Below, in pieces: positions 20,900 to 25,272 of a stretch of 64,000 nt of DNA. The stretch is from the NCBI RefSeq assembly GCF_030384885.1, contig NZ_CP128613.1; one strand, written 5' to 3'. Position 1 is the stretch's first letter. Every line of letters starts with the position of its first letter. Made by a program: the position numbers and the translations under genes. This DNA comes from Escherichia coli. GTDB lineage: Bacteria > Pseudomonadota > Gammaproteobacteria > Enterobacterales > Enterobacteriaceae. The notes under the pieces are model-generated. The model saw nothing but the letters and a program-made list of their open reading frames with translations. It made no database searches and was not told the DNA's origin.

Positions 20900-21082
20900 T
20901 CACAACCCGAAGATGTTTCTTGCGATTCATCATCGTGTTGCGAAAATTTGAGAGACTCACGAACAACTCTCGTTGTTCAGTGTTTCAATTTTCAGCTTGA
21001 TCCAGATTTTTAAAGAGCAAAACTTCGCAGTGAACCTTTGCAGGTACACTCTGAAGTATTTTTTATTTAATCACTACAGAGA

Positions 21083-21345: not shown

Positions 21346-22887
<1,542 letters not shown>

Positions 22888-23018
22888 AAAAGTTTGATGC
22901 TCAAAGAATTAAACTTCGTAATGAATTACGTGTTCACTCTTGAGACTTGGTATTCATTTTTCGTCTTGCGACGTTAAGAATCCGTATCTTCGAGTGCCCA
23001 CACAGATTGTCTGATAAA

Positions 23019-23031
23019 TTGTTAAAGAGCA
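23019..23031 (-). promoter_or_regulatory. boxA antitermination element in the rRNA leader
   Basis: Reverse complement reads TGCTCTTTAACAA, the rrn boxA consensus, between P2 and the 16S 5' end. Confidence 0.7.
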
Positions 23032-23068
23032 GTGCCGCTTCGCTTTTTCTCAGCGGCGCGGGGTGTGC

Positions 23069-23096
23069 ATAATACGCTTTCCCGCTACAGAGTCAA
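23069..23096 (-). promoter_or_regulatory. rrn P2 promoter
   Basis: Minus-strand -35 TTGACT (23091-23096) and -10 TATTAT (23069-23074) with a 16-bp spacer. Confidence 0.75.
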
Positions 23097-23186
23097 GCAT
23101 TTTTTTGCTTTTCTCTGTCGAGATTCTCAGAAGAACCCCGCTGATCCGGCGGCGTGTTTGCCGTTGTTCCGTGTCAGTGGTGGCGC

Positions 23187-23237
23187 ATTATAGGGAGTTA
23201 TTCCGGCCTGACAAGAGGAAATTTAAAATAATTTTCC
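23187..23237 (-). promoter_or_regulatory. rrn P1 promoter with upstream A/T-rich UP element
   Basis: Minus-strand -35 TTGTCA (23209-23214), 16-bp spacer, -10 TATAAT (23187-23192); matches the rrn P1 core TCTTGTCAGGCCGGAATAACTCCCTATAATGCGCCACCACTG. A/T-rich UP region at 23217-23237. Confidence 0.8.
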
Positions 23238-23263
23238 GACCGCGCATTTTTTACTCTTTATGC

Positions 23264-23809
23264 TTATTTCAGCGTCGGTTTGTCGGTTAAATGGGCGATT
23301 TCTCGGGCGAAATTCGCCACCTGCTGCCAATCGGTATAGACAACTTCTTTGCGCGTATCCGTTTCACCGCCTGACATCTTCATAATCAGCTTGATCATAA
23401 AGCGGTCGTACCAGCGGTAACGTGGATAACGTAGCGCCCCGGCAATGACGGCACAGCGATCGGGACGCCATTGTGAACTCATCAGAAACTTGCGCGCGTA
23501 GCTGTTGGTCTGTGGAGTACGCTTCTCCGGTTTACGCGCCACCAGGTTTACGGAGTAAAAGGCGCTCGGCATCGAATTCAGCCGCGTCGCATGCTTTTTG
23601 ACAAATTCCTGGAACGCAGAGTGGTAGTGACCATAGCGAATAGAAGCACCAATGACCACACGGTCGTAGTTTTCCCACTGTGGTTCTTCAATGCGGTGCA
23701 CATTGGCGACATCCGCCTGGATCCCCAATTCTTTCAGTTCCGAAGCCAGGTAGGCGGCAATCTCGCGCGTTTGTCCGTCCCTTGTTGAGAAAAGAATTAA
23801 TGTTTTCAC
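23264..23809 (-). CDS. hemG: protoporphyrinogen IX dehydrogenase (menaquinone-dependent, flavodoxin-like)
   Basis: 181-aa ORF with flavodoxin-like N-terminus ([18 protein letters not shown]). Confidence 0.95.
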
Positions 23810-23820
23810 GTATTACTCCA

Positions 23821-25272
23821 TCATTCACGCCAGAAAGTCGGGGTAAAGAGCACCAGTAATGTAAAGACCTCGAGACGACCAAACAGCATATTGGCAATCA
23901 GGATCCATTTAGCCACCGGGTTCATACTGGTAAAGTTATCAGCAACCACGCCAAGCCCTGGCCCCAGGTTATTCAATGTCGCAACAACCGAGGCAAAGGC
24001 AGAAAAGTCATCCACCCCCGTGGCGATAATCGCCAGCATACTGACAATAAACACCAATGCATAGGCAGAGAAAAATCCCCAAACAGCTTCGAGGATACGT
24101 TCCGGCAGTGCGCGATTCCCTAGCTTAATGCTATAGACGGCGTTCGGATGCACCAGTCGTTTCAGCTCACGGTTCCCCTGCTTAAACAGCAGCAGAATGC
24201 GGATCACTTTCAGGCCACCGCCCGTAGACCCGGCGCAACCGCCAATAAATGCTGAACATAACAGCAGTACCGGCAAAAAGAGCGGCCAGCGGGCAATGCT
24301 ATCTGTCGTAAACCCGGCGGTTGTCGCCATCGACACCACCTGAAAAAACGCCTGGTTAATTGTCATCAGCGCCGAACTATAGACATTATGAAACCACAGC
24401 ACGAGGGTACAAATAACCACCAGCGTAAACTGTACGCCGATAAACATGCGAAATTCCGGATCGCGCCAATAAACCTTCAGACTACGCCCACTTAACAGCG
24501 AAAAGTGCAGACCGTAGTTACAGCCGGAGATCAGCAGGAAGATAGCAATGATGGTGTTAATAGTCGGGCTGTCGAAATAACCGATACTGGCATCATGTGT
24601 CGAGAAGCCGCCAATAGCGATAGTCGCAAAGCTATGGCCGATGGCATCAAAGGCATCCATTCCGGCAAACCACAACGCCAGCGCACAGGCGACGGTCAGC
24701 AAGACATAAATCAACCACAGGGTTTTCGCCGTTTCCGCAATTCGCGGGCGCATTTTGTTATCTTTCAGCGGGCCGGGCATTTCTGCGCGATAGAGCTGCA
24801 TCCCACCCACGCCGAGGATAGGCAGTATCGCAACCGCCAAAACGATGATCCCCATCCCGCCAAACCATTGCAGCATCTGGCGATAAAAGAGGATTGCGTG
24901 AGGAAGTGTATCCAGTCCCACCAGCGTAGTGGCCCCCGTGGTAGTCAGACCGGAGAAAGATTCAAAAAACGCATCGGTAATCGTGAGGTTTGGGCTTTCC
25001 GAAAAGATAAAAGGGAGCGCACCGACGCTACCCAACACGGTCCAGAACAGCACCACTATCAGAAACCCTTCACGGGATTTCAGTTCGCCCTTTTCTTTAC
25101 GGTTCGGCCACCACAGCATAGAACCAATGGCAAGGGCGACAAAAAAGGTCTGGGTAAAGGCGCGGCCCGCACCATCCCGGTAGATGAGTGCTACCAGCCC
25201 AGGGATAATCATGGTCCCTGAAAATAAGATGACCAGTAGTCCAACAATTCGGGTAATGGCGCGAAAATGCAT
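23821..25272 (-). CDS. trkH: potassium uptake protein TrkH
   Basis: 483-aa polytopic membrane protein, TrkH/KtrB family, 12 bp upstream of hemG. Confidence 0.96.
   Translation of the reverse strand: MHFRAITRIVGLLVILFSGTMIIPGLVALIYRDGAGRAFTQTFFVALAIGSMLWWPNRKEKGELKSREGFLIVVLFWTVLGSVGALPFIFSESPNLTITDAFFESFSGLTTTGATTLVGLDTLPHAILFYRQMLQWFGGMGIIVLAVAILPILGVGGMQLYRAEMPGPLKDNKMRPRIAETAKTLWLIYVLLTVACALALWFAGMDAFDAIGHSFATIAIGGFSTHDASIGYFDSPTINTIIAIFLLISGCNYGLHFSLLSGRSLKVYWRDPEFRMFIGVQFTLVVICTLVLWFHNVYSSALMTINQAFFQVVSMATTAGFTTDSIARWPLFLPVLLLCSAFIGGCAGSTGGGLKVIRILLLFKQGNRELKRLVHPNAVYSIKLGNRALPERILEAVWGFFSAYALVFIVSMLAIIATGVDDFSAFASVVATLNNLGPGLGVVADNFTSMNPVAKWILIANMLFGRLEVFTLLVLFTPTFWRE

Follow-up and report, generated by a model that had tools for sequence, protein, structure and literature searches.

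Predicted Fis sites of the rrnA P1 upstream activating region overlie the 3′ end of hemG in Enterobacteriaceae

Upstream activating regions of stable-RNA promoters

Each rrn promoter has been proposed to carry three to five Fis sites, and in gel shifts with a roughly 500-bp rrnA fragment the number of sites agreed with the reported number; deletion of fis reduces expression of the rrn operons, to an extent that varies (PMC4696680). In Salmonella LT2, a Fis ChIP-seq peak was assigned upstream of rrsA (PMC3662779 supplement). Within the upstream activating sequences of stable-RNA promoters, Fis sites stand in helical register (PMC8099737).

The rrnB P1 promoter resembles rrnA P1 in its core and UP element, which are near-identical, in a site I at -71 and in further Fis-type sites upstream. 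In both operons the end of a co-directional gene lying upstream falls within the region; at rrnB this gene is murI, ending at -82. Fis footprinting on rrnA was reportedly carried out by Hirvonen et al. in 2001. The mapped Fis sites of rrnB are taken here to be centred at -71, -102, and -143; because murI ends at -82, sites II and III at these positions lie inside murI. The two promoters differ in the upstream gene (hemG versus murI) and in the upstream sites, for which the candidates at rrnA are -91 and -111, with a spacing of 20 bp, versus -102 and -143 at rrnB.

Like rrnA P1, the stable-RNA promoter of tyrT is preceded by several Fis sites that lie close together in helical register (PMC8099737). 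Unlike rrnA P1, it is a tRNA promoter. We take its Fis sites to be centred at -71, -91, and -122, of which the first two coincide with rrnA positions, and we know of no coding sequence overlapped by the tyrT upstream activating sequence.

Two further rrn operons, known here from K-12 alone, were compared. Upstream of rrnH the co-directional gmhB ends at -77, as a result of which its TGA stop codon (-79 to -77) falls inside the predicted site I core of rrnH, GATTAAAAGATGAGC. Upstream of rrnG the co-directional clpB ends at -152. Both operons differ from rrnA in the gene concerned and in the positions of the sites. Counted over the seven rrn operons, three show coding overlap with the upstream activating region, or four if clpB is included.

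The overlap between hemG and rrnA is that of a standard enterobacterial rrn P1 upstream activating region and, being not peculiar to rrnA (murI, gmhB, clpB), its description is correct but already implicit in established knowledge. Literature searches on hemG, rrnA, and Fis and on the overlap of murI with rrnB P1 returned nothing relevant, partly because rrnA was matched to rRNA and murI to murine. The evolutionary signature found at this locus, with wobble positions frozen, TTA imposed at one codon, and the stop codon shifting within an indel-free scaffold, is apparently undescribed; we have not seen it reported.

The hemG-rrnA junction and its Fis-type cores

The window, that is, the whole 64,000-nucleotide stretch of E. 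coli DNA analysed, carries on its minus strand trkH, then hemG, then rrnA, in the same arrangement as K-12 (Table 1). Following comparison of the encoded HemG with NCBIfam equivalog NF008316, a match over residues 1–176 of 181 was obtained (E = 4.8e-100; 332.7 bits, cut-off 142), making it a full-length member of the HemG family (menaquinone-dependent protoporphyrinogen IX dehydrogenase) by this profile. Pfam Flavodoxin_5 covers residues 4–152. RefSeq names the same gene hemG, and RefSeq genomes label 22880–23820 as hemG plus 16S rRNA.

The P1 hexamers match consensus at 11 of 12 positions in the promoter scan. A GC-rich discriminator, GCGCCACC, lies between the -10 hexamer and the A at +1, completing the characteristics of an rrn P1 core, and this core is identical to that of K-12 rrnA and rrnB P1. 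The +1 position of rrnA P1 was placed by homology at the A at 23178, because the sequence from about -68 to +9 is near-identical to K-12 rrnA and rrnB P1; the rrnB start site used for this purpose is an assumed one. Position -n thus corresponds to window position 23178 + n, and the hemG stop codon occupies -88 to -86. The UP element is A/T-rich as expected, and its sole difference from K-12 rrnA and rrnB is at -59. The sequence-only reading had put rrn P1 at 23187–23214 and the end of hemG at 23264; both were exact, the first by direct reading of the hexamers and the promoter scan, the second by the open reading frame and its stop codon.

Table 1. Features of the trkH-hemG-rrnA region. Positions are those of the window; centres are given relative to the P1 start.
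Feature	Position	Strand	Description
trkH	25272..23821	-	
hemG coding sequence	23809..23264	-	181 aa; GTG start; TAA stop at 23266..23264; from the open reading frame list
Candidate Fis site III core, centre -111	23282..23296	-	GCCCATTTAACCGAC; score 7.5; hemG codons A172-H173-L174-T175-D176
Candidate Fis site II core, centre -91	23262..23276	-	GACGCTGAAATAAGC; score 7.1
Predicted Fis site I core, centre -71	23242..23256	-	GAGTAAAAAATGCGC; score 8.0 (top); exact match to GNNYRNNWNNYRNNC; intergenic, 7 bp past the hemG stop
UP element, about -38 to -60	23216..23238	-	GGAAAATTATTTTAAATTTCCT
rrnA P1	23214..23187	-	-35 TTGTCA at 23214..23209; 16-bp spacer; -10 TATAAT at 23192..23187
rrnA P2	23096..23069	-	-10 TATTAT at 23074..23069
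rRNA operon	downstream of P1; 16S at 22887..21346	-	complete 16S-tRNA-tRNA-23S-5S

Comparison of the window with K-12 between 22880 and 23820 shows differences at 29 of 941 positions. Eighteen of these differences lie in hemG upstream of -224 and a cluster is found at +33 to +60, between P1 and P2. From -223 to -60 there are only three (-148, -76, and -59), and these leave the Fis-informative bases untouched. The same segment is 100% identical to that of E. coli strain 2013C-4282; identity of at least 99% occurs in only 4 of 5432 E. coli records.

A strict degenerate Fis consensus, GNNYRNNWNNYRNNC, was scanned over the whole window. In 23238–23330 (-60 to -152), where the sequence-only reading expected the Fis sites of P1, one match only was found, in the intergenic part at 23242–23256. 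Over the window as a whole its matches show no enrichment (117 versus 139 expected), so that the consensus proves little by itself. A second exact match, GTGTGCATAATACGC at 23063–23077, overlaps the -10 hexamer of rrnA P2 and, given this lack of enrichment, may be due to chance.

The strict scan was replaced by a graded score, checked against rrnB. In short, the score has terms for G and C at ±7, for an A/T centre, and for Y-R steps at ±3–4 (or shifted by one), and G at -8 is penalised. The determinants of Fis binding behind these terms, including the inhibitory G just outside the core, have been described (PMC4784862). This ad hoc score was calibrated on one promoter, rrnB, against assumed site positions; for the check, the upstream regions of the seven K-12 rrn operons were used. 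At K-12 rrnB the three best positions within -60 to -210 were -143, -71, and -102. At rrnA, both in K-12 and in the window, the best three in the same range were -71, -111, and -91, so that the core centres are spaced 20 bp apart. A candidate core centred at -71 or -72 is present in each of the seven rrn P1 regions of K-12. Scores of at least 7 are reached at only 0.23% of window positions, as compared with three cores of at least 7.1 within 60 bp, which makes the cluster more than a chance occurrence.

At the level of sequence, the region thus has a promoter-proximal Fis-type site at about -71 and additional upstream candidates in helical register at -91 and -111. Candidate site II spans the third base of codon 178, codons 179–181, the stop codon, and 2 nt beyond. 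Neither upstream candidate fits the strict consensus: the left half of site II is without a Y-R step, and at +4 site III has C in place of R. The motif scan proposed in the sequence-only reading therefore gives three cores by graded score and site I alone by strict consensus, and its statement that the upstream activator zone runs into hemG is borne out by the stop codon at -88 to -86 and by the candidate cores at -91 and -111.

A fourth, distal site comparable to that at -143 of rrnB was sought and rejected: nothing is conserved in -125 to -210, where the best positions (-202 and -159) pass in at most 40% of species. Farther into hemG, a Fis-like 15-mer, GACCGCTTTATGATC (23393–23407, centre -222), has a score of 7.6 and fits the consensus exactly in this strain. 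Only 12% of the 81 species pass the threshold at this position, and conservation of the site is therefore unlikely.

Conservation of the junction among Enterobacteriaceae

One genome per species was scanned, resulting in 80 hemG loci from Escherichia, Salmonella, Citrobacter, Enterobacter, Klebsiella/Raoultella, Kosakonia, Buttiauxella, and other genera. Conservation was counted over 81 hemG-rrn loci of Enterobacteriaceae in an ungapped alignment. An rrn P1 follows hemG in every locus extending far enough, and all 61 related loci that extend to the -35 hexamer have it at an unchanged offset. In the UP element, the T-rich and A-rich columns are kept across 78–79 species.

HemG of the relatives is 176, 177, 180, 181, or 183 aa long, and the first base of the stop codon is found at five positions (-103, -100, -91, -88, and -82). 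Three times the HemG length plus the distance from stop codon to -35 hexamer equals 592 nt in all loci; therefore, no lineage has an indel between hemG codon 1 and the P1 -35 hexamer. Between P1 and 16S, the distance in these loci ranges from 266 to 305 nt. The trkH-hemG spacer (23810–23820 in the window) measures 10–12 nt and its length differs by species, unlike the indel-free hemG-P1 junction.

A score of at least 6.5 is held at -71 in 99%, at -91 in 95%, and at -111 in 98% of the 81 species; among all other positions in hemG, the best attains it in 70%. In the core at -71, G-78 and R-74 are present in 81/81 and C-64 in 78/79 sequences. In the core at -91, G-98 is present in 78/81 and C-84 in 81/81, with A/T at -92 to -90 in 94–99%. 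In the core at -111, G-118, C-115, and T-111 are each present in 81/81 and C-104 in 79/81. All three cores have an A/T centre, never G at -8 and never C at +8, and A/T tracts recur every 20 bp (-72 to -70, -92 to -89, and -112 to -109). The signature of site III is in part (G-118, C-115, A-114, and T-111) also fixed by conserved amino acids.

Changes per site were counted by parsimony on a neighbour-joining tree of 79 taxa, built from 400 trkH codons and 175 hemG codons. The six ±7 positions underwent 0, 1, 3, 0, 0, and 2 changes, the two end positions of site I accounting for 0 and 1. The ±5 and ±6 positions changed 2–27 times (median about 16), and the difference between both groups gave p = 7e-4 in a Mann-Whitney test in which kinship between taxa is ignored. 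The N positions flanking site II changed 15–21 times. Because columns adjacent to the invariant bases change 15–27 times, shared ancestry cannot explain the invariance.

Within hemG, this effect is visible at the level of single codons. Codon 176 (23284..23282) underwent 19, 20, and 2 changes at its first, second, and third position, respectively; among the sequences it specifies 12 different amino acids, yet it reads NNC in 77/79, with its third base at 23282 (-104). Similarly, codon 178 (23278..23276) underwent 13, 7, and 3 changes and reads NNG in 76/79 (third base at 23276, -98). Both frozen third bases coincide with informative positions of the Fis-type cores. Thirty-five control columns with at least five amino acids had at least 6 changes at the third position (mean 18), and none shows this pattern. 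Leu174 (23290..23288), at the centre of candidate site III, is encoded by TTA in 64 of 68 Leu codons; over 61 other conserved Leu columns the share of TTA is 8.5%, with 58% as the highest value for a single column. Where the stop codon lies at -100 to -98 it is TAG in 20 of 23 species, by which G at -98 is retained, and elsewhere it is TAA in 51 of 58. Both the TTA at codon 174 and the TAG at -100 to -98 run contrary to usual codon and stop preferences. The sequence-only reading had proposed to examine the conservation of synonymous sites at the 3′ end of hemG, and the outcome is positive at these specific sites, namely codons 174, 176, and 178.

A region-wide drop in third-position change was considered as well and is small, with a mean of 13.2 changes for -152 to -89 as compared with 16.3 for the remainder of hemG and 15.7 for trkH. 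The four-fold sites at -116, -125, -128, -137, and -140 changed 13–33 times, which is normal compared with a control mean of about 20. The constraint signal belongs to specific sites rather than to the region. Inside hemG, the data support constraint at the DNA level for -118 to -84 only (23262–23296), since four-fold sites farther into the gene vary normally. Of the interval 23238–23330 highlighted in the sequence-only reading, 23262–23296 is therefore constrained, while the distal part, 23297–23330, shows normal four-fold variation (13–33 versus about 20 changes).

Codons 176–181 (23267–23284) form a hypervariable tail past the end of the HemG family profile, in which first and second positions change at about the rate of silent sites elsewhere. 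Protein-side constraint on these residues is weak and the DNA requirement dominates there. The earlier claim that the C-terminal codons of hemG are under dual constraint consequently stands as regards a DNA-level requirement at -118 to -84, but residues 176–181 are hardly under dual constraint, as their amino acids change like silent sites.

Proposed mechanism and alternatives

The 3′ end of hemG very probably doubles as the upstream activating region of rrnA P1, with three predicted Fis sites (-71, -91, and -111) in helical register. Because hemG is co-directional with the operon and ends at -86, candidate site II falls on the gene's final codons and stop codon, and candidate site III on codons 172–176. 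By analogy with rrnB P1 and tyrT, Fis would bind the three sites during fast growth and bend the DNA. The dimer at -71 would touch the RNA polymerase alpha subunit's C-terminal domain bound at the UP element, the upstream dimers would extend a coherently bent nucleoprotein loop, and bound Fis and bent loop would jointly raise rRNA transcription. We infer from the sequence that sites II and III are occupied by Fis and contribute to promoter activity. At rrnB, the upstream Fis sites are reported to contribute far less than site I, and for this reason the rrnB model does not fully account for the strong conservation of candidate sites II and III.

Since sites II and III overlie hemG codons, selection for P1 would fix within the gene both the bases critical for Fis (the G at -7, the C at +7, and the A/T centre) and the exact spacing to the promoter. 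For the protein, the cost would be that Leu174 is held to the rare TTA codon and that two wobble positions are frozen, while the last five to six residues of HemG would be an almost unconstrained translation of regulatory DNA with a stop codon drifting between species. A further reading, which we consider somewhat better than even, is that the HemG tail (residues 176–181 in E. coli) amounts to translated regulatory DNA: a Fis scaffold that is rigid and free of indels would set the nucleotides, the frame would run on to whichever stop it meets, and the choice of stop would follow the motif, with TAG where G is needed. The same may hold for murI at rrnB and for gmhB at rrnH.

Three other explanations for the conserved bases were weighed. 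The phased A/T tracts could serve an architecture other than Fis binding, such as intrinsic curvature or binding of H-NS or Lrp. The recurrence of these tracts each 20 bp (-72 to -70, -92 to -89, and -112 to -109) fits such a role, and both proteins are listed among the regulators of rrn, deletion of hns altering rrn promoter activity (PMC4696680). However, none of these predicts that each A/T centre is flanked by an invariant G and an invariant C separated by exactly 14 bp, nor that G at -8 and C at +8 are missing at all three sites, and the graded Fis score returns the Fis positions taken for rrnB as its top three; we regard this explanation as improbable. It is highly improbable that hemG carries no regulatory constraint at all, so that only the intergenic site I works and the remainder reflects protein constraint, codon bias, and shared ancestry. 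In line with this view, several bases of site III are first or second positions of codons for conserved residues, the four-fold sites from -152 to -112 vary freely (13–33 changes), and the strict consensus matches site I alone. Yet in the codons that end at -104 and -98 the third base is frozen, against 7–20 changes at each of the other two positions, a pattern shown by 0 of 35 amino-acid-variable control columns; TTA at Leu174 and TAG at -100 to -98 run against usual preferences, and the 15–27 changes in adjacent columns are contrary to shared ancestry.

Conservation could also act on the RNA, through a hemG terminator, a 3′-end stability element, or the context of translation termination, as the conserved stretch surrounds the stop codon, which is directly preceded by AAA in most species. 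Against this, no intrinsic terminator or conserved RNA structure was found by terminator scanning and consensus folding in 23215–23263, from the hemG stop to P1; RNAalifold predicted zero base pairs for 16 diverse sequences, and the conserved bases are in register with P1, not with the stop codon and its five positions. An effect on RNA has hardly any likelihood, the least of the three. Transcripts of trkH-hemG presumably read through the Fis-type sites and P1.

If the 3′ end of hemG belongs to the rrnA P1 upstream activating region, as preferred here, about 35 bp of the gene are read both as codons and as predicted Fis sites of one of the cell's strongest promoters, and annotation that sets gene and promoter one after the other conceals a real overlap. 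Recoding or tagging of the hemG 3′ end, deletion of hemG, or silent changes at L174, D176, and P178 could weaken rrnA expression, and estimates of selection that assume neutral synonymous sites would be biased there. The importance is modest: the locus is a teaching example of dual-use sequence and raises no new question on rRNA regulation. Were the same true for murI at rrnB and gmhB at rrnH, it would represent a clean natural case of a regulatory code overriding the coding code.

Elsewhere in the locus, the hemG start codon, which is GTG in the window, is ATG or TTG in other genera. The two tRNA genes of the rRNA operon's spacer presumably represent the Ile/Ala arrangement expected for rrnA. 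Finally, an Rfam StyR-44 match (20907–21015, 122.9 bits) lies in the 16S-23S spacer, directly upstream of the 23S gene.
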